Shown here: one piece after another, positions 1,204 through 44,336 of the stretch
How the letters are laid out: each line of letters opens with the position of its first letter
How positions within the stretch are numbered: position 1 is the stretch's first letter
Source of the DNA: Dehalococcoidia bacterium
GTDB taxonomy: Bacteria; Chloroflexota; Dehalococcoidia; Dehalococcoidales; G020351185
Assembly: GCA_020351185.1 (NCBI GenBank)
Contig: CP070729.1
Location: 1,314,077 to 1,363,061 of the forward strand
DNA length: 48,985 bases
Direction: 5' to 3'
Notes under the pieces: model-generated
The model's database searches: none
What the model was told of the DNA's origin: nothing
Seen by the model: only the letters and a program-made list of their open reading frames with translations
Position numbers and translations under genes: made by a program

Positions 1204-2016
1204 CTATTCCTCTTGCTTTTCCACTTTCGGTGTTTCGTTAGATTTTAAAAACCGTACTCGGTTATATATTAGCAGACCAATGGCTATTACGAGTACAATG
1301 ATGCCTATAAATTGTGCTTGATGCAAACCCAAGAGGAATGGCTCATTAATCCTCAGGAAGCCGATACTAAAACGCCAAAGCGAATAGCTACTGAGGTAGA
1401 CAAGGAATAGCGAACCATCTGGTTTGAGTCTACCTTTTAGTAGCATAATAATACCGAACAGAAACAACAAGAACATGATTTCGTAAAGCTGTGTTGGGTG
1501 AACGGGTATATTCGTTATTTCGGCAGCGCAACTGGGATGTGTATAGGTTATACCCCAAGGTAGGGATGTTGGTGCCTCTGGGCCGTGACAACAGCCATTT
1601 AGGAAACAGCCCAACCTCCCTATTATCTGGGCTAATATAATGCCGGGTGCCACCAAATCGGTGCCAAAGCCGTAATTAAAAGGTCTGAAGCGGCTATAAA
1701 TCCAGGTTCCCAAAACTGCACCTAGGATAGCGCCGTAAATGGTAAGCCCTTCTCCGCCGATTATCTGACCAAGGTTCTGGCTGTAATACTCCCACTTATC
1801 GATTACATGTATCAGTCGAGCGAATATTATACCCGACGGTATTCCCACTATGGCAAGTGCTAGAATCCTGTCAGAGGGGAAACCGGGCCAATGCTTTCTT
1901 ACTTGCCAAAAGGTCCATAGTACGAGGACAAAAACCCCCAGTGCAATCATCAAACCGTACCATCTGATTTCGAGAGAACCGATGGTAAAGGCTATAGGGT
2001 CTATATTTATCTCCAT
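1204..2016 (-). CDS. lgt: prolipoprotein diacylglyceryl transferase
   Basis: Polytopic protein with the GRLGCFLNGCCHG motif. The ATG at 2016 has GGAGAG upstream and avoids overlap with the upstream helicase; the ORF track started at 2055. Confidence 0.85.
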   Translation of the reverse strand: MEINIDPIAFTIGSLEIRWYGLMIALGVFVLVLWTFWQVRKHWPGFPSDRILALAIVGIPSGIIFARLIHVIDKWEYYSQNLGQIIGGEGLTIYGAILGAVLGTWIYSRFRPFNYGFGTDLVAPGIILAQIIGRLGCFLNGCCHGPEAPTSLPWGITYTHPSCAAEITNIPVHPTQLYEIMFLLFLFGIIMLLKGRLKPDGSLFLVYLSSYSLWRFSIGFLRINEPFLLGLHQAQFIGIIVLVIAIGLLIYNRVRFLKSNETPKVEKQEE

Positions 2017-2035
2017 AATCTTCTCTCCGATCTTT

Positions 2036-4339: not shown

Positions 4340-4623
4340 GGTATGATTTCAGTTTCGTAATCGAGTATCTCAACCTCAAAACGCCCGGCTGTTATGAAGT
4401 TCATCAAATTCGCAAACATTTCATTTATATGCCGACTATTATTACTTATAGAGCAGACACCTATCGTTGCTATTTGCCACAACTGATTATCGTCAACTTC
4501 GGCGACAGCGATATTGAACTTGTTCCCAAGTTGGCTTACTATGGATTTAAGTACTCTCCTCTTGCCCTTAAGGGACATATTTTCCGCTATGCGAAGCTTT
4601 ATTTTACATACACCTACAATCAT
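4333..4623 (-). CDS. DUF503 (YlxP-like) protein
   Basis: MIVGVCKIKL...SLKGKRRVLKSI...NIAVAEVD...LWQ matches the DUF503 pattern. Confidence 0.8.
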   Translation of the reverse strand: MIVGVCKIKLRIAENMSLKGKRRVLKSIVSQLGNKFNIAVAEVDDNQLWQIATIGVCSISNNSRHINEMFANLMNFITAGRFEVEILDYETEIIPC

Positions 4624-4819
4624 AATATATAAAATTCAGTTATTGATATTTTACCCTGTGATATCTCACTTGGGGGATTAAAAACAATGTATTAAGAAAA
4701 GAAACTTACCAGTATTATAATTCCAATATAGAATATTTCATTTGCCAAGTCAAGGCTAGCTATATTTACAAAAAAGGATTACAGTTGGTGATTAAACAAA
4801 TATTATGATATAAAAACGT

Positions 4820-4848
4820 TTTACACTCACAGGCACTTATGCTATAAT
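4820..4848 (+). promoter_or_regulatory. putative sigma-70 promoter of rpsO-pnp
   Basis: TTTACA, 17 nt spacer, TATAAT, located 30 nt upstream of the rpsO start. Confidence 0.35.
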
Positions 4849-4877
4849 CGGCTGGATAGATAGTACAGGAGTTCAAT

Positions 4878-5141
4878 TTGGAGAAACAAAAAAAGGCAAG
4901 CATAATAGAAAAATATAAAACCCACGACGGGGATACAGGCTCTACTGAAATCCAGATTGCCATATTGACAGAAAGGATTAACCAGTTAACCGGTCATATG
5001 GCAGCTAATAGCCATGATTTCCATACAAAACGTAGCTTGCTCAAACTGATTGGCCAACGTAGACGTTTACTCGTTTATTTAAACAAACAAGATGTCAGCC
5101 GCTACAAAAAGCTCATCAAAAGCCTCGGTCTCCGTAAGTAA
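4878..5141 (+). CDS. rpsO: 30S ribosomal protein S15
   Basis: TTG start. DTGSTEIQIA...HDFHTKRSLLKLIGQRRRLL is the canonical S15 sequence. Confidence 0.9.
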   Translation: MEKQKKASIIEKYKTHDGDTGSTEIQIAILTERINQLTGHMAANSHDFHTKRSLLKLIGQRRRLLVYLNKQDVSRYKKLIKSLGLRK

Positions 5142-5176
5142 TCCCTCTATCGTTAATAAACAACAAGGAGCAAGCA

Positions 5177-7378
5177 TTGACAGTACCCCATTCTTTTAAC
5201 TGCACCATTAGTGGTAGGAAATTAACTATAGAAACGGGAAAGTTCGCGAATCAAGCTAACGCAGCGGTCACCGTTCGATATGGAGATAGCGTTGTTTTGG
5301 TAACAGCATGTGTCAGCCCACAGCCAAGGGAGGGAGTAGATTTTTTACCCTTAACTGTTGATTACGAAGAAAGATTATACGCTGCTGGAAAGATACCAGG
5401 TGGTTTTATTCGACGAGAAGGTAGACCCAGCGAGGAGGCGACTCTTACCAGCCGCCTTACCGACAGACCACTACGTCCGCTGCTACCTAAACATTGGCGC
5501 CGTGAAATCCAACTTGTAATTACCGTACTTTCTGCAGACCGTGAGAACGATCCAGATGTTCTATCCATCATTGGTGGTTCGGCTGCTCTATCGATATCGG
5601 AGATTCCTTTTTATGGACCAGTCGGTGCCGTTCATGTTGGTTATATTAATGGTGAAATTGTATTGAATCCAACGATGCCACAAATGGAAGAAAGTGCACT
5701 TAATCTGGTAGTCGTGAGCACTAAAGATACGGTGGTAATGTTGGAAGCTGCTGCTAACAATGTCAGTGATGAGGTTGTTAACCAGGCGATAGAATTTGGC
5801 CATAACGCCAATCGACAGCTTATTGACCTTCAAGAAGATATGAGAAAGGTTTGTGGTAAGCCTAAAGATGAAGTTCCCATTTTTGAAGTCTCACCGGAAC
5901 TTAAATCCGCAGTATCCGCTGTAGTAGAAAAGAAATTGACTAAAGCCTTGAAACAATCTGTAAAAAATCACCGCGAGGAAGCATTGAGTGAAATAAGGCA
6001 GGAGCTTGTAAATAGTCTAGGAGATTCATATTCTGAAGATGATATCCTTAATTATCTTGACAATCTTATTAAAGAAAAAATAAGAAAGACTATTTTAGTG
6101 AAGGGTGAAAGAGTAAGTGGGCGCAGTCTGGATCAAGTGCGGCCTATAGATTGCGAGGTGGGGCTATTACCACGTGTACATGGATCAGCCCTATTCACCC
6201 GCGGCGAAACACAGGTATTGACAATTACCACGCTTGGATCCATAAAAAAAGAGCAGCTGCTAGACGGACTAGGGATAGAAGAAACCAAAAGGTTTATGCA
6301 TCACTACAATTTTCCACCCTTTTCCACCGGTGAAGTAAAACGGGTCGGCACCCCCAGCCGACGGTCCATCGGTCATGGAGCGCTGGCAGAACGGGCTCTA
6401 ATACCGGTAATGCCACCAGACAACGATTTTCCTTACACCATACGCCTAGTATCAGAAGTATTAAGCTCCAGTGGCAGTACATCAATGGCAAGTGCCTGTG
6501 CTTCCAGTTTATCGCTAATGGATGCAGGGATTCCATTAAAAACGCCAGTAGCTGGCATATCTATTGGGCTTGTTACCGGGGAAAATGGAGAATATGCCCT
6601 TCTAACAGATATTGAGGGCCTGGAAGATAATTATGGCGATATGGACTTCAAGGTTGCTGGGACAGAACAAGGTATTACTGCCATACAGATGGATACAAAA
6701 ATAAAGGGCTTAAGTTTGGAAATAATTGGGAAGACGTTAGTTCAAGCTAATCAAGCTCGTTTGTTGATATTGAAAGAAATGAGCAAGGCAATAAGTACTA
6801 GCCGGTCGGAGATGAGCCAGTATGCACCACGAATGTATAAATTAGAATTACCACAAGATAAGGTCGGATCTGTTATTGGCCCTGGAGGCAAAACTATCAG
6901 GTCAATTATTGAAGAGACTAATACCACTGTGGATATCAACAATGATGGGATTGCCTTTATTGGTTCAACCGATGCCGAATCCGCCAAGAAAGCCATAAAA
7001 ATGATAGAAAACCTGATAAGGGATGTTGAAGTTGGCTCTATTTATACAGGAAAAGTAACCCGTATAATGACTTTTGGTGCATTTGTTGAAATCCTACCAG
7101 GTAAGGAAGGATTGGTTCATATAAGCGAGTTAGCTGACTACAGAGTTGATAGAGTTGAAGATGTAGTTAAGGTGGGTGATGAAATTACAGTTAAAGTAAC
7201 CGAAATCGACGGTCAGGGTAGAATTAATCTTTCGAGGCAAGCTGTATTTGAAAAGACAACCGCTTCAACGGCGGGCATGAGAACGGGATATTCAACCGAC
7301 AGACAATATAAAAAGAAGCGCGATTTTCGATCTCAGCACCGCCAACGACCCACAGAAAGTAAGCGACGTCATTCATAA
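5177..7378 (+). CDS. pnp: polyribonucleotide nucleotidyltransferase (PNPase)
   Basis: Two RNase PH domains followed by KH and S1 domains. Located just downstream of rpsO. Confidence 0.95.
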   Translation: MTVPHSFNCTISGRKLTIETGKFANQANAAVTVRYGDSVVLVTACVSPQPREGVDFLPLTVDYEERLYAAGKIPGGFIRREGRPSEEATLTSRLTDRPLRPLLPKHWRREIQLVITVLSADRENDPDVLSIIGGSAALSISEIPFYGPVGAVHVGYINGEIVLNPTMPQMEESALNLVVVSTKDTVVMLEAAANNVSDEVVNQAIEFGHNANRQLIDLQEDMRKVCGKPKDEVPIFEVSPELKSAVSAVVEKKLTKALKQSVKNHREEALSEIRQELVNSLGDSYSEDDILNYLDNLIKEKIRKTILVKGERVSGRSLDQVRPIDCEVGLLPRVHGSALFTRGETQVLTITTLGSIKKEQLLDGLGIEETKRFMHHYNFPPFSTGEVKRVGTPSRRSIGHGALAERALIPVMPPDNDFPYTIRLVSEVLSSSGSTSMASACASSLSLMDAGIPLKTPVAGISIGLVTGENGEYALLTDIEGLEDNYGDMDFKVAGTEQGITAIQMDTKIKGLSLEIIGKTLVQANQARLLILKEMSKAISTSRSEMSQYAPRMYKLELPQDKVGSVIGPGGKTIRSIIEETNTTVDINNDGIAFIGSTDAESAKKAIKMIENLIRDVEVGSIYTGKVTRIMTFGAFVEILPGKEGLVHISELADYRVDRVEDVVKVGDEITVKVTEIDGQGRINLSRQAVFEKTTASTAGMRTGYSTDRQYKKKRDFRSQHRQRPTESKRRHS

Positions 7379-25312: not shown

Positions 25313-25385
25313 AGCCCACAACCAGACTCGAACTGGTGACCCCGTTCTTACCAAGAACGTGCTCTACCAACTGAGCTAACGGCCC
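25313..25385 (-). tRNA. tRNA-Thr(GGU)-like gene; D, anticodon and T arms canonical, acceptor strands do not pair
   Basis: On the minus strand: GGGCCGT TA GCTC AGTTGGTA GAGC A CGTTC TTGGTAA GAACG GGGTC ACCAG TTCGAGT CTGGT TGTGGGC T. Classic position upstream of tuf. No encoded CCA. Confidence 0.6.
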
Positions 25386-28888: not shown

Positions 28889-30283
28889 TTACCGTTTTAG
28901 GTGGATCGTTTCACCGGTAATGTCTAGGGTAGCCTCCCACAAAGCCTCTGAGAGAGTAGGGTGGGCATGAAGTGTGTTTTTAATATCGTCTAATGTAGAC
29001 CCAAGTTTAATGGCCATTGTGGCTTCTGATATCAGATCAACAGCACCGGATCCTATTATATGTACTCCGATAATCCTGTCGTCATCATTATTAGCGATAA
29101 TCTTTACCATACCTCTTCTCTCGCCCAAAATGTTTGCCGCTGAATTTGCCGCAAATGGAAATTTGCCGCATTTAATGGAATAATACTGCATTTTTGCCTT
29201 ATCTTCGGATATACCGACACTAGCTACTTCAGGTAAGGTAAAGATACATCGTGGTACCACTCTATAGTCCATCTTTACATGCTCTCCAAGAGCATTTTCA
29301 GCAGCGATACGCCCTTCAGCCATAGCTGTATAGGCTAACATTAATCTACCTGTTACATCACCAGCCGCATATATATCAGCAACTGATGTTTCCATATACT
29401 CATTCACTTCAATTCTACCATTGGAAACAGCTATGCCACATTTATCTAATCCTAATCCATCAAAATACGGTTCGTACCCCGAAGCTATAGCAATCATCTC
29501 CGCTTCTATAGATTTTTGAGTATCCTTGATTGTTATTAAAACTCGCTTGGATTTATGATCCGTATCAATTCTGTTGACAACCACTCCGGTATATATCCTA
29601 ACACCATCTCTTTTCAATGCCCCTGCCAAGATTGTTGTTATTTCACTATCTTCTTCAGGTAGAATATGTGGCATTGTTTCGATAAGACTAACCCGACAAT
29701 TCAAATTAGCCAATATTGTCGCCATTTCCACACCGACAATACCAGCACCAATGATGACAATGCTCTTAGGGATATAATTAAGATTTAGAATATCCTCAGC
29801 AAATATTATTTCCCGATGAGAAGCCCCAGGTATATCTAATTTTTTTTCCCTAGACCCAGTAGCCAAAATTATTTTATCCGCAACAATGGAATGGCTATCA
29901 CCCCCTTCATTAAATACCTCTATGCTTCCTTTTGATACTAGTTTTGCATGTCCTTTTATGACTTCGATGCCATTCATTTCTATAACGCTATTAAGCCCAG
30001 TAATTAGGGTAGATATAAGTCTATTCTTACTAGACTGCAATTTGGCTAAGTCAATGCAGTTAATGGAAGCATCAATGCCATATTTGGTAGAATCCTTGAT
30101 GAGCCGATATATTTCCACACACCTTAGAAGAAATTTAGTGGGTATACATGCCCTATTCAAACAGGCACCGCCGACTTCAATATTATCAATCATGACCACT
30201 TCGGCCCCAAGCTGTGCAGCTCTAATAGCAGCTGTATAACCAGCTGGACCACCACCAATCACTGCGACACATTTCCCCTTCAT
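28889..30283 (-). CDS. lpdA: dihydrolipoyl dehydrogenase
   Basis: GGGPAGY FAD motif, redox-active CLNRACIPTK, GAGIVGVE NAD motif and HAHPTLSE at the C-terminus. Confidence 0.85.
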   Translation of the reverse strand: MKGKCVAVIGGGPAGYTAAIRAAQLGAEVVMIDNIEVGGACLNRACIPTKFLLRCVEIYRLIKDSTKYGIDASINCIDLAKLQSSKNRLISTLITGLNSVIEMNGIEVIKGHAKLVSKGSIEVFNEGGDSHSIVADKIILATGSREKKLDIPGASHREIIFAEDILNLNYIPKSIVIIGAGIVGVEMATILANLNCRVSLIETMPHILPEEDSEITTILAGALKRDGVRIYTGVVVNRIDTDHKSKRVLITIKDTQKSIEAEMIAIASGYEPYFDGLGLDKCGIAVSNGRIEVNEYMETSVADIYAAGDVTGRLMLAYTAMAEGRIAAENALGEHVKMDYRVVPRCIFTLPEVASVGISEDKAKMQYYSIKCGKFPFAANSAANILGERRGMVKIIANNDDDRIIGVHIIGSGAVDLISEATMAIKLGSTLDDIKNTLHAHPTLSEALWEATLDITGETIHLKR

Positions 30284-30313
30284 TACACTATACTCTCCAC
30301 AACACGCAGTTAC

Positions 30314-30691
30314 TTACTTAATTAAATCAGAATATTCCTCGGCGGATAACAAGGAATCAATCTCATCGATATCGCTGATATCAATTACAAACATCCATCC
30401 CTTACCATATGGATCACTATTAATAATGCCAGGTGTTTTCTCTAGTTTTTTATTTATCTCAAGAACTGTGCCGCTAACGGGACTGTATAGGTCACTGGTA
30501 GCTTTGGATGATTCAATCAAACCAAACACACCGTCCCGGCATATATCAGCGCCTACCTTAGGTAGTTCGATAAAGACAATGTTTCTTAATTGCTCTTGGT
30601 AATAATGGGTTATGCCTATTGTTCCTCTATTATCCTCATCAATCTTCAACCAAGTGTGTTCAGTGCTGTATTTTAATTGACTAGGGTACAT
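30314..30691 (-). CDS. gcvH: glycine cleavage system H protein (lipoyl carrier)
   Basis: YSTEHTWLK...GLIESSKATSDLYSPVSG contains the lipoyl-lysine motif. The ATG at 30691 has GGGAGG upstream. Confidence 0.85.
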   Translation of the reverse strand: MYPSQLKYSTEHTWLKIDEDNRGTIGITHYYQEQLRNIVFIELPKVGADICRDGVFGLIESSKATSDLYSPVSGTVLEINKKLEKTPGIINSDPYGKGWMFVIDISDIDEIDSLLSAEEYSDLIK

Positions 30692-30869
30692 ACAATCCTC
30701 CCGCAAAATAAAACTAATAAAAACATTAAAAACTGACTATAGAATATCACATGGATGTTTTTACTTAAAGAACCATCCATCCACTACTTTGGATAATAAT
30801 CCATTATTTAGGTGAATGTTAAGCTTTTGTTAATAAACAGCAACAAACCCATTGCATAAATATTATGTA

Positions 30870-31026: not shown

Positions 31027-32970
31027 ATGGCCGAAAAAAACACTAGTAAAACCGACGCAAAAAATGTTGGACCACCGCCAAAAATACTAACGAAGCCATT
31101 GCCCATAATACTTGACGAAATGGAGGCTAACATAAAAGCAGCAGCTGAGGCAGCTAGAAGAGCTGAAAATGCTGCTATTAAAGCTAATGACGCAGCTAGA
31201 TCAGCTACGAAGGCCTCCAGCGAAGCTGAAAAAAGGGCAGAGGAAGCACGTAAAGCTGGTGAAACGGCAGCCCATAAGGCTACAGCAGCTGCTGCTAATG
31301 CTGCTGCAAAAGCCGAAAAAATAGCCCAAGCAGCGATAGCATCAGCTGAAAAAGCTGCTGCTGAAGCCGAAAAGGCAGATCGCGAAGCTCGAGAAGCAAG
31401 TCGAGAAGCTATAGAAGCGTCGGAGGCAGCTTCAAAATCAGCTGAAGAAGCTGCTCAGAAAGCCGAGGATGCGGCTATAAAAGCCGAGGATACAGCAAGA
31501 ACAGCAAAATCAGCCGCTGAAGAAGCTACCATAAAAGCTGAGGAAGCAAGTCGGGAAGCCATAGAAGCATCGGAATCAGCTTCAAGATCAGCCGATAATG
31601 CTGCACAAAGAGCCGAGGATGCGGCTATGAAAGCCGAGGATACAGCAAGAGCGGCAAAATACGCTGCTGAAGAAGCCACAGTGAAAGCTGAAGAGGTTGA
31701 GCTAGCAGCAAAAGAAACCGCAGCCGCCGCCTTAAAAGCAGCTGAAGATGCCGCCTTAAGGGCTGAAAACGCAGCCATTGCTGCAAAAGAGGCTGTAGAA
31801 CTCTCAATAGAAGCTGCCTCAACCGCAGGTAAGCATGCTGATGAAAGTACAAAATCAGCAAAAGCTGCGGGAGCAGAAGCTACCTCAACTTTAACAGTAG
31901 AATCTGCAAAAAAAGCCGATGAAAGTGGTAGGGAAGCCAAGAAAGCAGCCGCAACTGCCTTTCGTCTAGCCGAAGAAACAGCTAGAAAAGGTGAACTTGC
32001 CGATATAGCTGGTGATGAAGCCATTGATGCGGCTACTAGAGTTTCAGGGATCCTATCGGAAAGAATTGACGAAGCCGGTCAAGATGCAAAAACATCTGCA
32101 ATAAAAGCTGCTCGTATTTCAGATGAAATAACCAAGAAAGCCGAGCTAGCTGATATGGCAGGTGATGAAGCTCTAGCCGCGGCTGTTAAATCGATTGCCG
32201 AGCAGGCTGCTGGAAGAGCCACCGAAGCTGCTAAAATTTCAAAAGATGCAGCTGTCAGTTCTATCGAAGCTGCCAGAGCAGCAGCTAAGTTAGCAGAAGA
32301 AAAAATGCAGGCGGCTAAAGCAGCTGCTGAAGAAGCTGCTAAAAGCATGACCGTTGAAGCAGCTAGGAAAGCAGACGAAGCTGGTAAAGAAGCAAAAAGG
32401 GCAGCGGCAGCAGCTACTCGGTTAGCTCAAGAAGCAGCCAGAAAAGGCGAAATGGCCGGTATTGCCGGCGAAGAAGCCCTTGAAGCGGCAGCTCAGGTAT
32501 CCGGTGAACCAGCCGATAAAGCTGGTAAGGTAGGCAAGGAAGCCAAAGAAGTAGCAGCCGAGGCAGCTAGAGTTGCCGAAGAGACGGCCAAAATTGCTGA
32601 ACAAGCAGATCTGATAGCCGATGAAGCTATTGCAGCTGCTATTTCAGCTGCAGGAGGGCAAGCTATCGCCAAGGCAGAAGAAGCTAAGAGAGCAGCACAA
32701 CAGGCTACCGCTAGAGCCGAAGAAGTTGCTCGGGTAAGGGCTGAGGAAGCCAAAAAGGCAGCTCAGGAAGCAGCATCCAGAGCGGAAGAACTCGCTAAAG
32801 CAGCCCAAGAAGCTGCTGATATCGCTTTAGCCAAAGCTGAAGAAGCATTAGTAAAGAAGATAGTCAGGAAACTTACCCAATCAGAGTGGGTTGTATACGG
32901 AGCAATCATAATCCTAGCTATAATATTCGGTGCTGTCTTTCTTGCCGTAGCAATTGCTGGAGGTATTTAA
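31027..32970 (+). CDS. Ala/Glu/Lys-rich repetitive helical protein with C-terminal transmembrane tail anchor (647 aa)
   Basis: AAGGAGG lies 6 nt upstream of the ATG. There is no N-terminal signal peptide. About 600 aa of low-complexity A/E/K repeats end in WVVYGAIIILAIIFGAVFLAVAIAGGI. Confidence 0.7.
   Translation: MAEKNTSKTDAKNVGPPPKILTKPLPIILDEMEANIKAAAEAARRAENAAIKANDAARSATKASSEAEKRAEEARKAGETAAHKATAAAANAAAKAEKIAQAAIASAEKAAAEAEKADREAREASREAIEASEAASKSAEEAAQKAEDAAIKAEDTARTAKSAAEEATIKAEEASREAIEASESASRSADNAAQRAEDAAMKAEDTARAAKYAAEEATVKAEEVELAAKETAAAALKAAEDAALRAENAAIAAKEAVELSIEAASTAGKHADESTKSAKAAGAEATSTLTVESAKKADESGREAKKAAATAFRLAEETARKGELADIAGDEAIDAATRVSGILSERIDEAGQDAKTSAIKAARISDEITKKAELADMAGDEALAAAVKSIAEQAAGRATEAAKISKDAAVSSIEAARAAAKLAEEKMQAAKAAAEEAAKSMTVEAARKADEAGKEAKRAAAAATRLAQEAARKGEMAGIAGEEALEAAAQVSGEPADKAGKVGKEAKEVAAEAARVAEETAKIAEQADLIADEAIAAAISAAGGQAIAKAEEAKRAAQQATARAEEVARVRAEEAKKAAQEAASRAEELAKAAQEAADIALAKAEEALVKKIVRKLTQSEWVVYGAIIILAIIFGAVFLAVAIAGGI
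31393..31692 (+). repeat. 2 x 150-bp in-frame tandem repeat inside the Ala-rich gene
   Basis: Copy 1 starts at 31393 and copy 2 at 31543, both beginning gaagcaagtcg.gaagc.atagaagc. About 85% identity by eye. Each encodes a 50-aa unit, EASREAIEASE.AS.SA...AEDAA.KAEDTAR.AK.AAEEAT.KAE. Confidence 0.85.
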
Positions 32971-36249: not shown

Positions 36250-37662
36250 TTGGCATCCAGTAAAGAGCGGATTTACGCTAAAGCTGTACGCCGCGCAATA
36301 ACTGCGGTTATCTCTGAATTAAATCTCAATGAAACATTAGCCGTTATTGTCAGGAGCACTGCCAGATCAATGAAAGCCGGCGCATCGTTGGTATTGCTTG
36401 ATGCTAACGGCAAAAAGTTGATGCACAGTATTACTTGGGGATTACCTCGTTTCTACATCCAAAAGGGCATACCAGATGCTCACCGAAGCCTCTCCGAAGT
36501 AGTTTGTGGAAAGACAATTATTATAGAAGATGTTTCACATGACAGCCGGATACAGTATCACCGCATGGCAATAAATGCTGGGATTGTATCCATCATCGGT
36601 ACTCCCATAATTATTGATGGATTACCTATAGGAAGTATCCGTGTTTATACGAAACAGCCCTGTGAGTGCAGCAAGCAGGATATCGGTTTTATTGAAACGA
36701 TCGCCAGTTTAATCGCAATAGCCTTTAAAGTGCACCTTCCAATTAAAGAAAAAAACCAAATAAAGAAAATAAAGCATGTACAACCGGTTACTTTTGCACA
36801 TCCCAGCGAAAAAGAGTTTGCCCGCATACTCGATTTCTATAACATGGAGTGGGTTTATGAACCGCGTTCTTTTCCGCTTAAATGGAATGGTGATAGAGTA
36901 ACCGAAATGTTTACTCCCGATTTTTATTTGCCAGGTCTTGATCTATACGTGGAAATAACGACACTAAAACAGAGCCTAGTTACAAATAAAAACCGTAAAC
37001 TTAGAAAGCTCAGAGAGATGTACCCAGATATTAATATAAACCTACTATACAAAAACGACTATAACCACTTACTAGCAAAGTACGGTGTTGGTCCGCTTTC
37101 ACAAACTAGAGCCCGCGGTATCAAGCGAATATTGTACTCAGCTGATGATATAAAAAGCCGAGTGATTGAACTAGCCGAAAAAATTTCAAAGGATTATAAA
37201 GATCGCCATCCGATTCTTGTGGGAATACAGCGAGGATTTATCTGCTTTATGGCCGACCTTATACGACAAATAACGGTTCCCCTTGATCTCGATTTTATTG
37301 CAATATCATACTACACTGGTGACGGTGATTCAGTGGTAAAAATTACTAAGGATATGGATTTGAAAATAGCTGGTCGGGATGTAATTGTAGTGGAAGACAT
37401 AGTCGATACTGGTATAACTTTGAATTATATCCTTAACCATCTAAAAACAAAAAAACCAACTAGCTTGGCAATATGTACTCTACTAGATAGGCAAATACGA
37501 CGGATTGTTAAACTACCAATCGATTATACAGGTTTCGAATTACCGGATGAGTTTGTGGTGGGTTATGGCCTAGATTACAAAGAGGAGTATAGAAATCTTC
37601 CTTTTATTGCTATACCCGATATAAAAAAGCCACAGCTAAAGAAAAACCACAATCCCCCGTAG
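36250..37662 (+). CDS. three-module fusion: N-terminal GAF-like domain, central PD-(D/E)xK-like domain, C-terminal hypoxanthine phosphoribosyltransferase
   Basis: The C-terminal ~175 aa align to Hpt, including the PRPP loop VIVVEDIVDTGITL and DEFVVGYGLDY. Residues ~20-160 resemble a GAF domain. Residues ~180-285 carry EFA..L...W.YEP...FTPDFYLP...LYVEIT. Confidence 0.75.
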   Translation: MASSKERIYAKAVRRAITAVISELNLNETLAVIVRSTARSMKAGASLVLLDANGKKLMHSITWGLPRFYIQKGIPDAHRSLSEVVCGKTIIIEDVSHDSRIQYHRMAINAGIVSIIGTPIIIDGLPIGSIRVYTKQPCECSKQDIGFIETIASLIAIAFKVHLPIKEKNQIKKIKHVQPVTFAHPSEKEFARILDFYNMEWVYEPRSFPLKWNGDRVTEMFTPDFYLPGLDLYVEITTLKQSLVTNKNRKLRKLREMYPDININLLYKNDYNHLLAKYGVGPLSQTRARGIKRILYSADDIKSRVIELAEKISKDYKDRHPILVGIQRGFICFMADLIRQITVPLDLDFIAISYYTGDGDSVVKITKDMDLKIAGRDVIVVEDIVDTGITLNYILNHLKTKKPTSLAICTLLDRQIRRIVKLPIDYTGFELPDEFVVGYGLDYKEEYRNLPFIAIPDIKKPQLKKNHNPP

Positions 37663-39231: not shown

Positions 39232-39260
39232 TTGACAAATCGATAGAAATGTTCGATAAT
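39232..39260 (+). promoter_or_regulatory. putative sigma-70 promoter of the ars operon, giving a leaderless or near-leaderless arsR mRNA
   Basis: TTGACA, 17 nt spacer, GATAAT. The -10 element ends 7 nt before the arsR ATG and there is no SD. TCGATA/TCGAA repeats overlap the promoter. Confidence 0.45.
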
Positions 39261-39267
39261 ACTAAAT

Positions 39268-39642
39268 ATGTCGAATAATCGAATTATAGATATTCATCAA
39301 CTTACTGAAATATTCAAAGCTCTTTCCAATACCAACCGTCTTAGAATCTTCATGCGTTTAACCTATTGTGCTGGACAAATACAGAATACTAAATCAGACG
39401 ATCAGATTTGTGAATGTGTTGGCACATTAGGCAACGACCTAGCAATTGCACCATCCACCATTTCTCATCACTTAAAGGAGCTTAGCCATTCAGGGCTTAT
39501 CACGATGACTAGACGGGGTCAGAATGTTGAATGTCAAGTAAATCCTGAGGCATTAAATTTATTAAATACTTTTTTTAACGAAGCTTGCGCCACATCAATT
39601 ACTATACAAAATGATCATGTTCCGGGCCAATTACAGGCCTGA
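39268..39642 (+). CDS. arsR: ArsR/SmtB-family metalloregulator
   Basis: Winged-helix HTH (PSTISHHLKELSHSGLI) preceded by CEC at the position of the ArsR CVC As(III) site. Confidence 0.8.
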   Translation: MSNNRIIDIHQLTEIFKALSNTNRLRIFMRLTYCAGQIQNTKSDDQICECVGTLGNDLAIAPSTISHHLKELSHSGLITMTRRGQNVECQVNPEALNLLNTFFNEACATSITIQNDHVPGQLQA

Positions 39643-39654
39643 AGGAGAGTGTAA

Positions 39655-39954
39655 ATGAATAAAAAGATAACTATCTATGAACCAACACTATGTTGTGACA
39701 GTGGTGTCTGCGGACCCAACCCTGACCAAGCGCTGATAACATTACAAGATACTATAGATAAAGCAAAGGAAAAGGGAATCGAAACTGAACGTTTTACCAT
39801 TACTTCACACCCAAAAAAATTCCAAGAAAATCCTGAGGTAATAAAACTGTTACAGGAAAAAAAGTTGAATGCCCTGCCCATTACTGCTTTTGAAGGACAG
39901 ATTATAAAAGCAGGCAGCTACCCAACTCTTGATGAATTAATCCGATATTTTTAA
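39655..39954 (+). CDS. arsD: arsenic metallochaperone ArsD (short form)
   Basis: IYEPTLCCDSGVCGP matches the ArsD Cys12-Cys13-Cys18 motif. Thioredoxin-like length and adjacent to arsA. Confidence 0.85.
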   Translation: MNKKITIYEPTLCCDSGVCGPNPDQALITLQDTIDKAKEKGIETERFTITSHPKKFQENPEVIKLLQEKKLNALPITAFEGQIIKAGSYPTLDELIRYF

Positions 39955-39997
39955 TTGACAATGGCAATATTTAGGAAATAAGTCGTTATAATTTTAG

Positions 39998-41878
39998 ATG
40001 GGAAAAAGCTTAAAAACTAGATTTTATTTCTTTTCCGGCAAGGGTGGAGTCGGTAAAACAACAATGGCTTGTGCAAGTGCTATCTACCTTGCCGCCCTTG
40101 GGGAAAAAACTCTTATCATTACGACCGATCCGGCATCCAATCTAGCCGATGTTTTCGAACAGAACATAGGGAACGAGATAACTACAATCAATACAACTAC
40201 TAATCTTTTTGCTCTTGAGCTGGATCCCGATAAAGCCACCGAAGAGTATAAGCAACGGACTATTGCACCACTACAAGGTATAGTTCCCCCTGAAAGTCTT
40301 GAAGTCATTGAGGAACAGTTAAACTCTCCATGCACAGCAGAAGTAGCTGCTTTTGAACGTTTTACCGATTTTCTACAGGACCCTGAATTCGATACTGTTA
40401 TCTTTGATACTGCCCCAACCGGTCACACGCTGAGACTAATTCAATTACCTGTTGAATGGAGCGGAGTTATTGAAGAAGCCGCTAGGAGCGGCACAGGTGG
40501 TCAAACCTGTGTTGGTCCAGCAGCATCACTAGCTGAATCGAAACTAAAATTTGACCGTGCCATCGAAGCTATGCGTAATCCCGATGAAGCAACCTTTATC
40601 TTTGTTTTACGCCCAGAAGCTACATCTATTTATGAAACGAATAACTCAATCACCGAACTTTCCAAACTGGGAATAAGGTCACAAGAATTAATTGTCAATG
40701 GCATTTATCCACAGAATATTTGTGATAGCCCGTTTATGAAAGGTCGTTATTCGCGTCAACAACAATTCTTGCAAACCATAAAAGATGACTTCTCTTTACC
40801 TACCACTTTAGTAGAACTAAAACCTAGCGAGGTAAAAGGGGTTGCAGCGCTATATGAAGTGGCAGAAGCGATTTTTAAAAAACCGATGAGTATGGATAAC
40901 TATTCACCGATTATATTAGAAAACATTCAAGTAACCTCCATACAAAATTATCCGTCCACAGACTTAGCCATAAACCAACTGTTAACACCTATTAACGGAA
41001 GAAGAACAATATTCTTTGCCGGCAAGGGCGGGGTCGGTAAAACCTCTGTTGCCGCAGCAACTAGTCTCTGGATAGCAAAACAAGGATACCGGACAATATT
41101 AATTACTACTGATCCAGCATCTCATTTAGCTCAGGTCTTCGAGCAAAATATATCCGACAAACCTACCCTCATAGAGGGTGAACAACACTTATGGATATCG
41201 CATATTGATCCGTCGAAGGCTGCACAGCAGTACAAAGAAAAAGTCTTGGCTGAAATACAACAGAAATACGATGAAAAAAGAGTTCTTGCCGTCGAGGAGG
41301 AGCTAAATTCGCCTTGCACCGAGGAGATGGCAACTTTTGAGAAATTCATAGAATTCGCTACCCTAAAGGATTACGAGGTTATGATCTTTGATACAGCACC
41401 AACAGGCCACACCCTTCGCCTGTTAAATTTACCAGTTGAATGGAATAGACAACTGGAAATAAAGATTTTTACAACCGTGGAGTCCAATGCAGATAAGATT
41501 ACCAAATCCCGCTTTCTTGAAGTTATCAACATGATGCAAGACCCAGAACAAACCACATTCAGTTTTGTTATGTATCCAGAAAAGACCCCAATCGAAGAAG
41601 CCAGCCGGGCAATGAGTGAATTATCAGAAATTGACATAAAAACCTCACTCGTTGTCGCTAACATGATATTACCTAATACAATAATAACAAATGATTACTG
41701 GCGACAGCGTCAGGCTATGCAAAAAGAATATCTAAAAGAAATGAAAAATAGATTCAAAGCACCCATTATACAACTGCCGCTTCTTGATGAAGATCTTATG
41801 GGTAAAGATAAATTAGTGCAGGCTGGAATGTTGCTTTATGGTATAAAAAACCCGGTAGCAGAAGGAGTAAAGAAATGA
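39998..41878 (+). CDS. arsA: arsenite-stimulated ATPase ArsA (two homologous halves)
   Basis: GKGGVGKT occurs twice and DTAPTGHTLRL twice. Equivalents of the R773 ArsA metalloid cysteines are present: NSPCTAEVAAF, GGQTCVGP, NSPCTEEMATF. Confidence 0.92.
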   Translation: MGKSLKTRFYFFSGKGGVGKTTMACASAIYLAALGEKTLIITTDPASNLADVFEQNIGNEITTINTTTNLFALELDPDKATEEYKQRTIAPLQGIVPPESLEVIEEQLNSPCTAEVAAFERFTDFLQDPEFDTVIFDTAPTGHTLRLIQLPVEWSGVIEEAARSGTGGQTCVGPAASLAESKLKFDRAIEAMRNPDEATFIFVLRPEATSIYETNNSITELSKLGIRSQELIVNGIYPQNICDSPFMKGRYSRQQQFLQTIKDDFSLPTTLVELKPSEVKGVAALYEVAEAIFKKPMSMDNYSPIILENIQVTSIQNYPSTDLAINQLLTPINGRRTIFFAGKGGVGKTSVAAATSLWIAKQGYRTILITTDPASHLAQVFEQNISDKPTLIEGEQHLWISHIDPSKAAQQYKEKVLAEIQQKYDEKRVLAVEEELNSPCTEEMATFEKFIEFATLKDYEVMIFDTAPTGHTLRLLNLPVEWNRQLEIKIFTTVESNADKITKSRFLEVINMMQDPEQTTFSFVMYPEKTPIEEASRAMSELSEIDIKTSLVVANMILPNTIITNDYWRQRQAMQKEYLKEMKNRFKAPIIQLPLLDEDLMGKDKLVQAGMLLYGIKNPVAEGVKK

Positions 41879-42435
41879 ACCAACAAGACATATCCGATCC
41901 TGAAAAACAAAATGAAGAATTGATATCGTCTTCGGTTCTGGGCAAGTGGTTCCCACGGGGTAAGCGCTGGCGTACAATAATTTTCACTGTTACCCTAATT
42001 GCAGCTATCGCAATCGCTACAAATTCAATAATTAGGTATGAGAGCAGCAGGGTAGTAGATGCACAACCGAATATCACGCCAACGATAACTACACCCCTAG
42101 AAGAAATCACTGCTCCCCAGTTTATTGAGGATCGCCAAGAGGCATACCTTTCCGATAATAAGCTTGTGCTTGTCATAACACCAGTGAATGATGACGGCCT
42201 AAATGAGCCTGTTACTGATACTGTAATTGAAGCAGCAAATAATATTCAGGATACGGATAATATTCATGTAGGAGTATATACACTACCAAAGGATGAATAT
42301 GCCACAAGTCCCAGTGTTACGGTTAGAGTATTGCATCATGATCCAACTAAACCAGACCTCTCTTGGACAATCCGCGAAGATATAACCACATCTAGCATCT
42401 ACGAAACCTATCTCAACTTTGTATTTATTCAATAG
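41875..42435 (+). CDS. hypothetical N-terminally membrane-anchored, cysteine-free protein (186 aa)
   Basis: Its start overlaps the arsA stop (ATGA). One TM helix (IIFTVTLIAAIAIATNSII) followed by a ~125-aa extracytoplasmic domain. Confidence 0.5.
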   Translation: MNQQDISDPEKQNEELISSSVLGKWFPRGKRWRTIIFTVTLIAAIAIATNSIIRYESSRVVDAQPNITPTITTPLEEITAPQFIEDRQEAYLSDNKLVLVITPVNDDGLNEPVTDTVIEAANNIQDTDNIHVGVYTLPKDEYATSPSVTVRVLHHDPTKPDLSWTIREDITTSSIYETYLNFVFIQ

Positions 42436-42443
42436 ACAAAGGA

Positions 42444-43181
42444 GTGGTAATAATGGAAGATTGGATAATGGAAATTCTCAAAGGTGACCAGTTTGGTCTG
42501 CTAGCATTTCTTGCTGCTTTTTTGTTCGGGATATCCAGCGCTTTCACTACTGCAGCCTGTGGTGGTATCCCCGCAATGTTGGTTATCGTCGGTTATACTG
42601 GTGCCAGTAAGGGTGGACGTCGACAATTATTTATTACGGCAGCTGCCTTCACAATAGCTTCAGTTACTGCACTAATGCTTCTTGGAGCGCTAATGAGTTA
42701 CTTCGGCGGGGCTATGCAGGATCTAACCGGCAGGTTAGGTTTTTATGCCTTGAAAGCAGTTGGTCTTATAGCCATATTTATCGGTTTTTTGGCACTCGAC
42801 ATTTTACCCTTTCGAGTCCCGGAATTCAAGCTAGCGCCGGAGAAGGTGCCAAGTGGTATTTTAGGTGCTTCTGTAATCGGACTTACCGCCGGCCTGGCAT
42901 CGGCCGGTTGCGCCGCTACTTGCTCACCTATACAACTCCCAGTCGTACTAGGGCTAGCAACACTTAGAGGTGAAATGTTGCAAGGTGCTTTCATACTCGG
43001 TTTATTTGCACTGGGATATACCTTCCCAATTGTGGCTATTATGCTTGGTGTAGGCATGGGTAAAGCTTCGAGAATTATGGCTAAAATTGACAAACCGCTT
43101 CGAATTATATCGGGAATCTTCCTTATTGGCGTCGGCTTTTATCTGATATCAATAATGAGTTTATCTATAAAGATTAATTAG
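42444..43181 (+). CDS. CcdA/DsbD-superfamily (DsbD_2-like) thiol-disulfide electron-transport membrane protein
   Basis: About 6 TM segments with one Cys-containing motif in each half (TAACGGIP and ATCSPIQLP). The ATG at 42453 with AAGGAG upstream is the likelier start. Confidence 0.65.
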   Translation: MVIMEDWIMEILKGDQFGLLAFLAAFLFGISSAFTTAACGGIPAMLVIVGYTGASKGGRRQLFITAAAFTIASVTALMLLGALMSYFGGAMQDLTGRLGFYALKAVGLIAIFIGFLALDILPFRVPEFKLAPEKVPSGILGASVIGLTAGLASAGCAATCSPIQLPVVLGLATLRGEMLQGAFILGLFALGYTFPIVAIMLGVGMGKASRIMAKIDKPLRIISGIFLIGVGFYLISIMSLSIKIN

Positions 43182-43205
43182 TAAAATTTATCGAGTCATA
43201 GATAC

Positions 43206-43958
43206 ATGTATCATAAGTCAGAAAAGAAAACAGCTGCGAGAAAGAGTAGACAAAAACAACTTCAATCTATAACCAGACGTCATTTCTTAAAAGAAGCCAG
43301 TATTATAGTAGGTGGAATAGCTTTAACCTCAGTACCATTAACATCAGCTTGTAGTGATTCTGGACACATTTCTACCTCGAATAATACAAATAATACTCCA
43401 ATTAGTACACTTACAGGCGAAAACACATCGACTAAAACAACAACTAAAGATACTTCAATTACATCAGTAAATACCGAAATTTACACTCCCAACGTGACAT
43501 GGAATGGTGAATATATTCCTCCTAATGAGGACCCCGAGGTGGAGCCAATACCTGGTTGCACTACGTTTGTAGCCGTGGACCGACTCTATGCTATAGAGCA
43601 CATGTGGATTAAGCCAATTGCTGAAGGTATTGTAGTTATTGGGATTACTGAGAAATTTCTTGAATTCCTAGAAGATGTATTTTTAATATCACTTCAAGAC
43701 GTTAGTACTACCATTACGCGTAATTCATACCTTGGGGATATAGAAGCAAAAAAAATGAACGTTGAAATGGTAGCTCCAGTCAGCGGAGTGATACTGCAAA
43801 ATAATGATAAAATTTTAGATGATCCAGATTGGGTCGAGAAAAGACCATATGTTAGTGGCTGGTTTCAGGTAATACAACTAAGCAATCCCAACGAGCTAAA
43901 TGAACTCCTTACAGCTGAAAAGTATATATCATATCAAGCCAAAGTTGTTGTCGAATAA
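43206..43958 (+). CDS. Tat-signal, possibly lipid-anchored, GcvH-like (lipoyl-carrier fold) exported protein
   Basis: TRRHFLK twin-arginine motif, h-region ending LTSAC, an S/T/N-rich linker, then a ~125-aa domain that aligns without gaps to the window's own gcvH, including the lipoyl Lys (K183, 43752-43754). Confidence 0.7.
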   Translation: MYHKSEKKTAARKSRQKQLQSITRRHFLKEASIIVGGIALTSVPLTSACSDSGHISTSNNTNNTPISTLTGENTSTKTTTKDTSITSVNTEIYTPNVTWNGEYIPPNEDPEVEPIPGCTTFVAVDRLYAIEHMWIKPIAEGIVVIGITEKFLEFLEDVFLISLQDVSTTITRNSYLGDIEAKKMNVEMVAPVSGVILQNNDKILDDPDWVEKRPYVSGWFQVIQLSNPNELNELLTAEKYISYQAKVVVE

Positions 43959-44336
43959 TCCTATTACTATCTGGAAATTAAAAACATAAAATCAATTACA
44001 AACAGGAAGAGTTTTCATATTCCAACTTTATTTTCTATGAAATATTTGTTTTGTTGTTGTATATCATTAATTCCTTGTGTAATTAAAGAGCTGATTAAAA
44101 TCCTGAAAGATTTAAGCAATAGCAACCATATTTCCTTCTAGCCAGTGTTTGATACCCGGAAATTCAGGACCTTATAATGTAACTCTTCTATTAAAAATTA
44201 AATCCTAAAAAGAAAAGTCTTTTGATGGGTTTGAACCCATACCCCATTGTTTAAAATAGCGTTAAGTACCGTCAGCCCGTAATACTTAAAAATTAAAAAT
44301 TGACGTTCAGCTAGTTGAAGTTTAAAAAAAATGGAT

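Follow-up and report, generated by a model that had tools for sequence, protein, structure and literature searches.

What does an ArsA ATPase do in an operon that holds no arsenite pump? The question is raised by a 49-kb stretch of DNA (48,985 nucleotides, analysed as a whole and referred to here as the window) from the metagenome-assembled genome (MAG) of a Dehalococcoidia bacterium. To our knowledge, ArsA is known only to energise the pumps ArsB or Acr3, and in the window arsR, arsD and arsA are followed by three genes of another kind: orf186 (orfX in the relatives), encoding a single-pass membrane protein; a gene for a protein of six transmembrane (TM) helices from the CcdA/DsbD superfamily, called here the six-TM protein and written TM in gene orders; and a gene for a GcvH-like lipoyl carrier predicted to be exported. 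The answer favoured in this analysis, tentatively and at somewhat less than even confidence, is that these three genes constitute a Dehalococcoidia-specific and ArsR-controlled extension of the ars system, which handles arsenite, As(III), across the cytoplasmic membrane and on its outer face through the exchange of thiol ligands. An earlier note on this DNA had described the operon as pump-less and had offered two hypotheses for the extra genes: (a) that the CcdA-like protein is a membrane partner coupled to ArsA, or (b) that it keeps an extracytoplasmic lipoyl protein reduced, which then deals with arsenicals outside the cell.

The six co-directional open reading frames (ORFs) listed in that note are all present on the plus strand at 39268-43958 as a single operon, arsR-arsD-arsA-orf186-TM-gcvH-like, with gaps between successive genes of 12, 43, -4 (the ATGA overlap of arsA and orf186, seen earlier as well), 8 or 17, and 24 nt, and no convincing terminator within the operon (Table 1). 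Profile hidden Markov models (HMMs), the annotation step that the note had recommended, matched for ArsR, ArsD, ArsA, GCV_H and the twin-arginine translocation (Tat) signal. The promoter-like site ahead of arsR is the joint-best plus-strand site of the region, tied with one at 44149-44178, and the end of its -10 hexamer lies 7 nt before the arsR ATG; the operon transcript is therefore probably leaderless. An imperfect palindrome overlaps both the -10 hexamer and the arsR start codon, a position that makes it a candidate ArsR operator.

Table 1. Positions of the operon genes and control signals in the window, and of related genes at other loci (L numbers).
Feature	Position	Strand	Score or remark
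Promoter-like site, TTGACA-17-GATAAT	39232..39260	+	11/12 consensus matches; consensus match only
Imperfect palindrome (TTCGATAAT ... ATAATCGAA)	39252..39283	.	16-nt arms, 75% complementary
arsR, ArsR/SmtB repressor, 124 aa	39268..39642	+	NF033788 59 bits (cutoff 55); PF01022 26.5 bits (cutoff 22)
arsD, arsenite metallochaperone, 99 aa	39655..39954	+	PF06953 104.8 bits; NF033727 107.5 bits (cutoff 90)
arsA, two-domain ATPase, 626 aa, divergent type I subfamily	39998..41878	+	PF02374 501 bits, two stretches
orf186 (orfX), N-in single-pass membrane protein, external domain ~110 aa	41875..42435	+	no Pfam/NCBIfam match
TM, six-TM CcdA/DsbD-superfamily protein	42453..43181 (GTG alternative 42444)	+	242 aa from ATG 42453; 245 aa from GTG
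gcvH-like, predicted Tat-exported, lipid-anchored lipoyl carrier, 250 aa	43206..43958	+	PF01597 88.6 bits (cutoff 22.2); TIGR01409 18.5 (cutoff 16.7)
FabG-like genes	L013:1218-1934; L015:4816-5568; L029:5607-6018; L039:6631-7347		
Rhodanese-like lipoprotein genes	L014:2824-3156; L025:1827-2159; L033:1340-1972		LYCAU rhodanese-related selenoprotein family (NF041203)
TM relatives beside hgcAB	L019:1521-4333; L020:48-1295; L046:674-2819		

The same set of genes recurs well beyond this genome. Loci were collected by contig look-ups of homologs of the six-TM protein, by a scan of species-representative genomes (11 loci) and by a scan of metagenomes (18 loci), all of the sequence coming from MAGs and metagenomes, and were annotated by phmmer against the window proteins. 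They amount to 27 sequence-distinct loci or groups, every one of them from the Dehalococcoidia/Chloroflexota. orfX stands directly before TM in 22 of the 22 groups with upstream sequence and ArsA is found in all 14 groups with enough flank, accompanied by ArsD (15 groups), ArsR (14), the GcvH-like protein (17, often in two copies), LipB (11), LipA (8) and a FabG-like reductase (4). Such recurrence rules out chance adjacency of the extra genes and meets the doubt, raised in the earlier note, that the association might be seen in no other genome; the proposal that the three genes are a functional part of the system has held up. The genes are shuffled from lineage to lineage, and this is an argument that selection on co-location, and not shared ancestry alone, keeps them together.

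Two arrangements of the cluster can be distinguished. Type I has the order arsR-arsD-arsA-orfX-TM-(gcvH-like) and includes the window, L001, L008, L012, L022 and L003. Type II has acr3 divergent from arsA, followed by lipB-fabG-lipA-gcvH-like (one or two copies)-arsD-arsR-orfX-TM-lipB-lipA; the full layout with the divergent acr3 occurs in L015 and L039, and the arsD-arsR-orfX-TM core with lipoylation genes occurs in L029, L031, L013, L014, L005/L016 and L036/L037. The L005/L016 cluster abuts an Lgt-helicase-DUF503-S15-PNPase segment that is syntenic with positions 1204-7378 of the window; the cluster has therefore changed its place relative to this anchor, and the DNA upstream of the window could hold LipB/LipA. 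A MauE/DoxX-family membrane protein encoded near the start of the window, at 587-1099 (+), shares 55% identity with one from within the L014 cluster.

The first three gene products are genuine arsenite components, as had been proposed, with all of their As(III)-binding cysteines present. The As(III)-sensing CxC of ArsR (C48-E-C50) lies where the DNA-binding helix begins and is invariant in 12 orthologs from both cluster types, with orthologs of type II clusters carrying the classic CCVCE; ArsR control of the cluster is plausible because of this invariance and because arsR lies immediately upstream of orfX-TM in type II clusters. ArsD cysteines C13, C14 and C19 (Cys12, Cys13 and Cys18 of the family reference) are invariant in 8 orthologs. 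In ArsA, the features that the earlier note had read from the sequence were all recovered: P-loops at residues 14 and 342, DTAPTGHTLRL signatures at 137 and 465, and three metalloid cysteines, C112, C171 and C440, which in an alignment to PDB 1f48 correspond to Cys113, Cys172 and Cys422 of the R773 ArsA. The window ArsA belongs to a divergent subfamily that falls under both equivalog cutoffs (ArsA_halo 643 bits against 800; TIGR04291 501 bits against 650) and passes only the GET3/ArsA subfamily model (TIGR00345 472 bits). The type I ArsAs as a group score 618-643 bits on ArsA_halo and 478-501 on TIGR04291, whereas the type II ArsAs are of the standard ArsA_halo type (893-905 bits) and are paired with Acr3. 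Five type I loci were tested; four encode the divergent ArsA directly upstream of orfX-TM, and in the fifth, L003, arsR-arsD intervene.

The kinship of ArsA with Get3/TRC40, expressed in the TIGR00345 score, raises the possibility that it acts here as a targeting ATPase which inserts orf186 or other anchored proteins, with no transport of arsenic. The arsA stop codon overlaps the start of the membrane-anchored orf186, and the window encodes a tail-anchored protein at 31027-32970 (+), 647 aa long, Ala/Glu/Lys-rich and repetitive, with one C-terminal hydrophobic helix. Against this, orf186 is anchored at its N-terminus and not at its tail, all three metalloid cysteines of ArsA are kept, and ArsA is always found alongside ArsD and a CxC-bearing ArsR. 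A Get3-like role had already been judged less likely in the earlier note, and the metalloid cysteines and the N-terminal anchor of orf186 lead to the same judgement here, where its probability is taken to be close to negligible.

Whether the divergent ArsA has a pump to serve was addressed for the window and for its relatives. Genes for Acr3, an ArsB-type pump or ArsP were absent from the 49-kb window in a Pfam scan of the flanking ORFs and in six-frame tblastn searches with Acr3 and ArsP, and the window also encodes no ArsC, ArsM (six-frame tblastn), LipA or LipB. Within 10 kb of the cluster, Acr3 was likewise not found in L001 or L022. In a homolog search for an Acr3 of the MAG itself, none of the best 120 of 8,000 candidates came from the 1,378,241-bp contig or had a JSV74 tag. 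The description of the system as pump-less therefore stands for the operon and for the 49-kb window; it does not extend to several relatives with an adjacent Acr3. A genuine Acr3 (TIGR00832 410-443 bits, cutoff 283) is encoded within a few kb in L003, L015 and L039, a partial Acr3-like ORF directly follows TM in L027, and for L040 an Acr3 on a contig of equal length (16,907 bp) suggests that it accompanies the cluster there too. A CcdA-like partner for ArsA, as in hypothesis (a), consequently need not be general, the standard ArsA of type II clusters being encoded back-to-back with Acr3, but the part of the claim that concerns the divergent type I ArsA, tied as it is to orf186-TM, is retained. 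For the window itself, coupling of ArsA to the membrane unit is favoured by the ATGA overlap with orf186, the position of orf186-TM in the slot of arsB, the divergent ArsA subfamily and the lack of a pump nearby.

The gene of the six-TM protein most likely starts at the ATG, given a GGAG 8 nt upstream, homologs that begin with MEDW or MDAW, and the 242-aa length of the NCBI protein JSV74_07340, to which it is 100% identical. Three intramembrane cysteines are invariant (numbered from the GTG): C39 in TM1, within the family motif TTAxCGGxP, and C156-x3-C160-S-P in TM4, within AGCAxxCSPxQLP, the latter two being one helical turn apart. The K/R-rich loops 1-2, 3-4 and 5-6 are placed in the cytoplasm by the positive-inside rule, as read from the sequence. 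This layout of six helices with a conserved cysteine in TM1 and another in TM4 (C160-x-P162) is that of CcdA, and the AlphaFold2 (AF2) model, helical throughout, has CcdA (5vkv) as its top Foldseek match (prob 0.99, E 0.044, TM-score 0.37-0.40), a weak match to a model with a predicted local distance difference test (pLDDT) score of 60. The AF2 models of this protein and of orf186 were built from 10 close homologs and are of low confidence, and their Foldseek results are treated as hints only. A family profile searched against the PDB found no chain at E <= 1.

Kinship with CcdA thus holds only at the level of the superfamily; membership in DsbD_2 could not be upheld, as the match of 18.6 bits is short of the Pfam gathering score of 24.9. 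Homologs have only weak precomputed DsbD_TM/DsbD_2 matches, and none of the CcdA NCBIfam models matched the protein (E <= 0.01). The canonical P-C-x-x-P motifs are absent, with AACGGIP and ATCSPIQLP in their place, the canonical APCTLP and SPCIGP being confined to the remotest members of a broad alignment (A4). The best curated match is to ArsG (NF040495), at 31.1 bits (cutoff 200, E 1.4e-7), and runs end to end, from residues 20-237 of the protein to positions 5-223 of the 225 in the profile. With a score so far from the cutoff, the protein is not a member of ArsG. An exhaustive profile search of 1.84 billion representatives shows that its own family is small: no more than 14 proteins reach E <= 1e-30, and 87 reach E <= 1e-10. 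Judged from its sequence, the six-TM protein looks like a metal(loid) binder, because of the three invariant cysteines, its Cys-richer outgroup and ArsG as its best curated match.

That outgroup was followed through six relatives of the six-TM protein (L018, L019, L020, L043, L044 and L046). In three of them, L019, L020 and L046, where the protein is 31-37% identical, genes of the hgcA/hgcB kind lie directly downstream of TM: in L019 HgcA scores 441 bits against a cutoff of 275 and HgcB 120 against 99, in L020 an HgcA-like ORF is partly present, and L046 has CdhD-type and ferredoxin genes. A Cys-rich membrane-anchored partner precedes the TM relative in L019 and L020, and these hgcAB-adjacent relatives are candidates for an Hg(II)/methylmercury conduit of methylators. 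In L044 (2530-12371), a non-Dehalococcoidia ars island has a TM relative that is 34% identical, in the order ArsR (CVC), 55-aa Cys-rich peptide, P-type ATPase, 253-aa partner, TM, ArsC, ArsM-like protein, CMD protein, Acr3, 573-aa protein and ArsP. The contigs of L018 and L043 are too short to reveal more than a Cys-rich partner.

The upstream partners in L044, L019 and L018 have the architecture of orf186 and its external domain (HMM E 2e-9 for L044). Both of their ends form Cys-rich tails, with sequences such as CCAGGSCC (cytoplasmic) and SSCCPGGGGAC (external). In the outgroup six-TM proteins C39 is invariant and C160-x-P is largely kept (P162 nearly invariant), with TM4 often reading CxxCCxP and TM1 often CC. 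Cysteine clusters on both faces of the membrane together with a Cys-lined membrane protein are the layout expected for the transfer of a thiophilic metal(loid) by ligand exchange. The Dehalococcoidia orf186 lacks both Cys-rich tails, and the cluster instead encodes ArsD on the inside and a dithiol cofactor protein on the outside; the Dehalococcoidia cluster may therefore represent the same relay, with its end stations moved onto separate proteins.

orf186 itself crosses the membrane with a single TM helix, which joins a cytoplasmic N-tail to an external domain. It has no CxxC, the window protein being without any cysteine and most orthologs having the single cysteine of a TPCxD motif, so that the earlier description of a Cys-free anchored protein is right for the subclade of the window and wrong for most orthologs. 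The AF2 model (pLDDT 52) has a beta-alpha-beta-beta-beta order, thioredoxins recur among its weak Foldseek matches (E 0.03-0.2), and a YPTV/SPSV loop is seen in the sequences of the orthologs; the external domain is possibly thioredoxin-like. The idea that it is an external ArsD-like protein was discarded, hhalign having given no similarity to ArsD.

The last gene of the operon would provide the external dithiol. The GcvH-like protein begins with TRRHFLK (R24, R25), an h-region, the lipobox LTSAC (C49) and an S/T/N-rich tether, such that the Tat signal and the domain named in the earlier note are confirmed and a predicted lipoprotein anchor with a tether is added to them. The motif [ST]RRxF[LI]K is present in 11 of 11 aligned orthologs and in 19 of 19 with an N-terminus across the wider set of loci, the cysteine after the h-region is nearly invariant (15 of the 19 fit a narrow lipobox pattern) and is followed by a variable S/T/P-rich tether, and the lipoyl lysine K183 is invariant in the 11 aligned orthologs. 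The window protein has only two cysteines, C49 and C118, and the latter, which belongs to a PGC motif immediately ahead of the domain, is kept by nearly all orthologs in the form GC, GTxC or SC. An Lgt-like ORF is recognised by translation at 1204-2055 of the window, and its syntenic counterparts in L005/L006 carry PF01790 LGT. The protein misses the equivalog cutoffs of glycine-cleavage H-protein (PRK01202 93.9 bits against 117; TIGR00527 71.3 bits against 115.9), and no P or T protein gene is adjacent to its own. A canonical GcvH (PF01597 141 bits), whose lysine aligns with K183, is encoded at 28889-30706 (-) beside dihydrolipoamide dehydrogenase (Lpd), also with no adjacent P/T genes; the genome would appear to have one cytoplasmic and one exported H-type protein.

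In the relatives, LipB (TIGR00214 140 bits, cutoff 84) and LipA (TIGR00510 329 bits, cutoff 310) are encoded beside the GcvH-like orthologs, and a FabG-like 3-oxoacyl-ACP reductase that just missed its cutoff (TIGR01830 276 bits, cutoff 298) lies between or beside them, which suggests a dedicated supply of octanoyl-ACP for lipoylating the exported protein. The GcvH-like protein is very likely lipoylated, since the lipoyl lysine is kept and LipB/LipA stand alongside it in relatives. Signal, tether, conserved lysine and dedicated LipB/LipA/FabG together make a strong case for export of the folded, lipoylated protein by Tat and for its attachment to the outer face of the membrane. The same genes could be read differently, with the extra H-protein (and LipB/LipA in relatives) as a cytoplasmic back-up for lipoylation, an internal lipoyl relay or decoy, and the membrane proteins as passengers. 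Lipoyl enzymes are the classical target of arsenite and some bacteria depend on GcvH as an obligate relay of lipoyl groups, both of which would suit such a role, as would the linkage of LipB, LipA and FabG-like genes. The twin-arginine signal in all 19 orthologs with an N-terminus, the tether and the near-invariant lipobox cysteine point instead to export, a canonical cytoplasmic GcvH is already encoded next to Lpd in the window, and the invariable linkage of orf186-TM is not that of passengers; the back-up is accordingly regarded as very improbable.

Several observations concern the lipoyl gene and its surroundings at individual loci. L034 (1248-1655) has a decayed GcvH-like gene after TM, in which the h-region, LSSAC, S/T tether and IPGC are kept before the frame is lost, and this shows that the lipoyl gene can decay while TM persists. 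L003 (11540-12397) encodes an MshB/Mca-like PIG-L deacetylase after LipA, with 156 bits on mycothiol MshB (below cutoff), which hints at a low-molecular-weight thiol pathway. Minus-strand matches to the GcvH-like protein in L012 and L022 were removed from the system, because the match is confined to the signal and the linker of a ferredoxin-type Tat lipoprotein. These genes, upstream of type I clusters at L012:1-2593 (-) and L022:4606-5415 (-), read in translation as a Tat-signal lipoprotein with zinc-finger-like and 4Fe-4S motifs, which in L012 adjoins an ORF resembling (again by translation) aldehyde:ferredoxin oxidoreductases.

Taken as a thiol relay for arsenite, the components would act in sequence. 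As(III) would bind the CxC of ArsR and the operon would be derepressed. Cytoplasmic ArsD would capture As(III) through C13, C14 and C19 and pass it to C112, C171 and C440 of ArsA, and ArsA, if coupled to the membrane unit as we infer, or else ArsD directly, would hand it to orf186 and the six-TM protein, with orf186 acting as a structural partner. C39, C156 and C160 would hold As(III) as a trithiolate, and an alternating-access movement, such as CcdA uses in disulfide exchange, would turn the site outward; As(III) rather than electrons would be what crosses by way of these cysteines, presumably in the outward direction. Dihydrolipoyl groups are classical high-affinity ligands of arsenite, and As-S bonds exchange readily between thiols. 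Provided that the tethered GcvH-like protein is exported and lipoylated in vivo, the dihydrolipoyl arm on K183, possibly with C118, would strip As(III) from the membrane protein and release it to the medium.

A number of points weigh against this scheme. The best PDB fold match of the six-TM protein, weak as it is, is an electron transporter, and a Cys in TM1 with a Cys-Pro in TM4 also fits the needs of an electron shuttle. The window orf186, being Cys-less, would be unable to relay As(III) itself, and it is not evident that the loss of As(III) from a dithiol chelate would be favoured. One long locus, L001/L009, has the orfX-TM pair with no GcvH-like gene within 10 kb. In type II clusters, and in L003, a genuine Acr3 adjoins ArsA or lies no more than a few kb from it, and ArsA may simply be serving Acr3, a second exporter then looking redundant.

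The electron shuttle is a version of hypothesis (b), in which a SoxV-like pair, with the six-TM protein as a true CcdA-type transporter and a thioredoxin-like orf186, would move electrons from cytoplasmic thioredoxin to the exported lipoyl protein and keep it in the dithiol state, and in some relatives would also serve a rhodanese-like protein with a Cys-Ala-selenocysteine (Sec) end. ArsD and ArsA would then work with an Acr3 encoded elsewhere, in keeping with the Acr3 genes adjacent in several relatives. The external dihydrolipoyl may chelate As(III) or methylarsenite, by which the respiratory enzymes, which face outward in these single-membrane bacteria, would be protected; alternatively, it may be the reductant for an extracytoplasmic reduction of arsenicals. 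The weak DsbD_TM/DsbD_2 matches of the homologs, the CcdA fold match, the classical CcdA arrangement with an N-anchored partner and the thioredoxins among the weak fold matches of orf186 are all consistent with a shuttle. Furthermore, both external partners, the lipoyl protein and the LYCAU-family rhodanese of L014, L025 and L033, are two-electron dithiol-type centres. A SoxV and thioredoxin pair services the swinging-arm thiol of the carrier SoxY, and the nearest annotated plasmid relatives of the six-TM protein in tblastn are SoxV-type CcdA genes beside thioredoxins. At 27-28% identity and in sox operons, these plasmid genes were rejected as homologs in an ars context and serve as an analogue only. 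The occurrence of CcdA and thioredoxin genes together in ars operons is noted by Castillo and Saier (2010; PMC2963123).

Other evidence is difficult to reconcile with a shuttle. orf186 is without CxxC, with at most one cysteine and with none in the window, and could provide no redox relay, and the third invariant cysteine of the six-TM protein, as well as the extreme Cys-richness of TM4 and of the partner tails in the outgroup, would be superfluous for electron transfer. The canonical CcdA PCxxP is visible only in the most distant A4 members, and the CcdA NCBIfam models failed to match. In anoxic habitats a surface lipoyl group should stay reduced unless there is catalytic turnover, and no conserved catalytic acceptor accompanies it; as a stoichiometric chelator it would give limited protection. 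On this balance the shuttle is considered rather unlikely. It does give hypothesis (b) a good known analogue in SoxV/SoxW/SoxY, and the evidence tilts only slightly to a version of hypothesis (a), on account of the three invariant membrane cysteines, the Cys-rich partners and Hg/As contexts of the outgroup, and the divergent ArsA tied to orf186-TM.

A further alternative places the cluster in sulfur chemistry, with orf186, TM and the lipoyl protein as an extracytoplasmic unit for thiols and sulfane sulfur: rhodanese and dihydrolipoyl would make sulfide from thiosulfate or polysulfide, and external As(III) would be converted to thioarsenic species or As-S precipitates, such that arsenic binding was never the main job of the lipoyl arm. 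Rhodanese takes dihydrolipoate as a sulfur acceptor with the release of sulfide, and in L014, L025 and L033 the next gene after TM or after gcvH-like encodes a rhodanese-like lipoprotein. The L014 ORF ends in VFYCA followed by a stop codon, which may encode selenocysteine. The MauE/DoxX membrane protein within the L014 cluster would fit the same picture, as would L040 (1540-8165), where a Psr/Phs-type molybdopterin oxidoreductase (best match thiosulfate reductase PhsA, 237 bits), with Fe-S, NrfD and TorD-like subunits and a 2Fe-2S protein, takes the place where lipoyl genes usually stand, between arsA and arsD-arsR-orfX-TM, and a transposase lies downstream. This enzyme was also considered as the respiratory arsenate reductase ArrA, an assignment that its score does not allow (126 bits against a cutoff of 1600). 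Rhodanese, however, is found in only about 3 of the 27 groups, the molybdoenzyme occurs once, beside a transposase and below every curated cutoff, and the window has none of these genes except the MauE/DoxX gene 38 kb away. The invariant cysteines of the six-TM protein and the tight linkage to ArsD/ArsA would also go unexplained, and a sulfur-chemistry module is thought improbable.

The remainder of the window is ordinary chromosome, and the surroundings of the operon are of a housekeeping character (ribosomal proteins, EF-Tu, IF-2, NusA, PNPase and ThrRS). The sole Rfam match in the window is a partial tRNA match of 42.6 bits at 25321-25378 (-), just upstream of the EF-Tu gene. An unusual fusion is encoded at 36250-37662 (+), with an N-terminal GAF domain, a C-terminal phosphoribosyltransferase domain and a middle portion without a family match.

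Dehalococcoidia are key organohalide-respiring and subsurface bacteria with respiratory enzymes that face outward, and how they cope with arsenic matters for the bioremediation of sites with mixed organohalide and arsenic contamination. If the thiol relay is correct, a divergent ArsA wired to a cysteine-based membrane unit would be a new transport principle in arsenic resistance, and could help to explain other ars operons that have ArsA but lack a pump. Tat export of a lipoylated protein and its tethering at the cell surface would put the lipoyl cofactor to a new use, and the hgcAB-adjacent relatives offer a testable candidate for the step in which Hg(II) or methylmercury crosses the membrane of methylators. 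With regard to novelty, the arsRDA part of the system is already known, and the orf186/TM/lipoyl module belongs to no curated family and fails the score tests of CcdA/DsbD_2 and ArsG. Targeted full-text literature searches found no description of lipoyl genes in ars operons or of a Tat-exported lipoyl protein, and the Haft selenoprotein preprint likewise has nothing on either. A categorically new mechanism has a substantial, if less than even, probability. The fuller proposal is held with similar reserve: an undescribed class of arsenite translocation that leads from a divergent ArsA/ArsD to a CcdA-derived protein with three cysteines and on to the first known purposely exported lipoylated protein, and in which the same family provides a soft-metal conduit beside hgcAB.

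Comparison with known systems places these features in context. The cluster resembles arsRDAB of plasmid R773 and arsRDA-acr3 in the CxC of ArsR, the CC...C of ArsD, the two-domain ArsA with three metalloid cysteines and the order arsR-arsD-arsA followed by the membrane component(s); it differs in that the arsB/acr3 slot is filled by orf186 and a CcdA-superfamily protein, followed by an exported lipoyl protein, and in an ArsA below the equivalog cutoffs. CcdA homologues occur in ars operons, with a function that was only guessed (Castillo and Saier 2010, PMC2963123); the operons described there have CxxC thioredoxins and usually arsC, and that work reports no lipoyl protein, LipB/LipA or orf186-type partner. 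ArsG, a permease reported to export trivalent aromatic aminoarsenicals (Chen et al. 2019, cited in PMC9144182), transports arsenicals, comes from the same superfamily as the six-TM protein and aligns with it over its full length, yet the six-TM protein is not a member (31 against 200 bits), and ArsG is not known to cooperate with ArsA, ArsD or any lipoyl protein.

CcdA-ResA and SoxV-SoxW/S-SoxY share with the cluster the six TM helices, the Cys in TM1 and Cys-Pro in TM4, the N-anchored partner and an external swinging-arm thiol carrier, whereas the Pfam score below gathering, the lack of PCxxP, the third invariant cysteine, the partner without CxxC and an ars rather than a cytochrome c or sox context set the present system apart from CcdA/DsbD systems. 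LbpA of sHdr sulfur oxidation is a cytoplasmic lipoate-binding protein that uses sLpl(AB)/LipS1/LipS2; like the protein described here, it is a GcvH-like single-domain lipoyl carrier that functions outside glycine cleavage and is encoded with its own lipoate assembly enzymes, and unlike it, the carrier of the Dehalococcoidia is predicted to be Tat-exported and lipid-anchored and is linked to canonical LipB and LipA. Lastly, the relay of the Mer system, from MerP to MerT to MerA, passes a soft metal by ligand exchange between cysteine pairs. The parallel lies in a thiol hand-over between external, membrane and cytoplasmic partners, and in outgroup relatives of the six-TM protein that are linked to hgcAB and to Cys-rich partners; the proteins have no sequence kinship to MerT/MerP, and in the relay proposed here the direction would presumably be outward, with the external thiols provided by a lipoyl group in place of CxxC.

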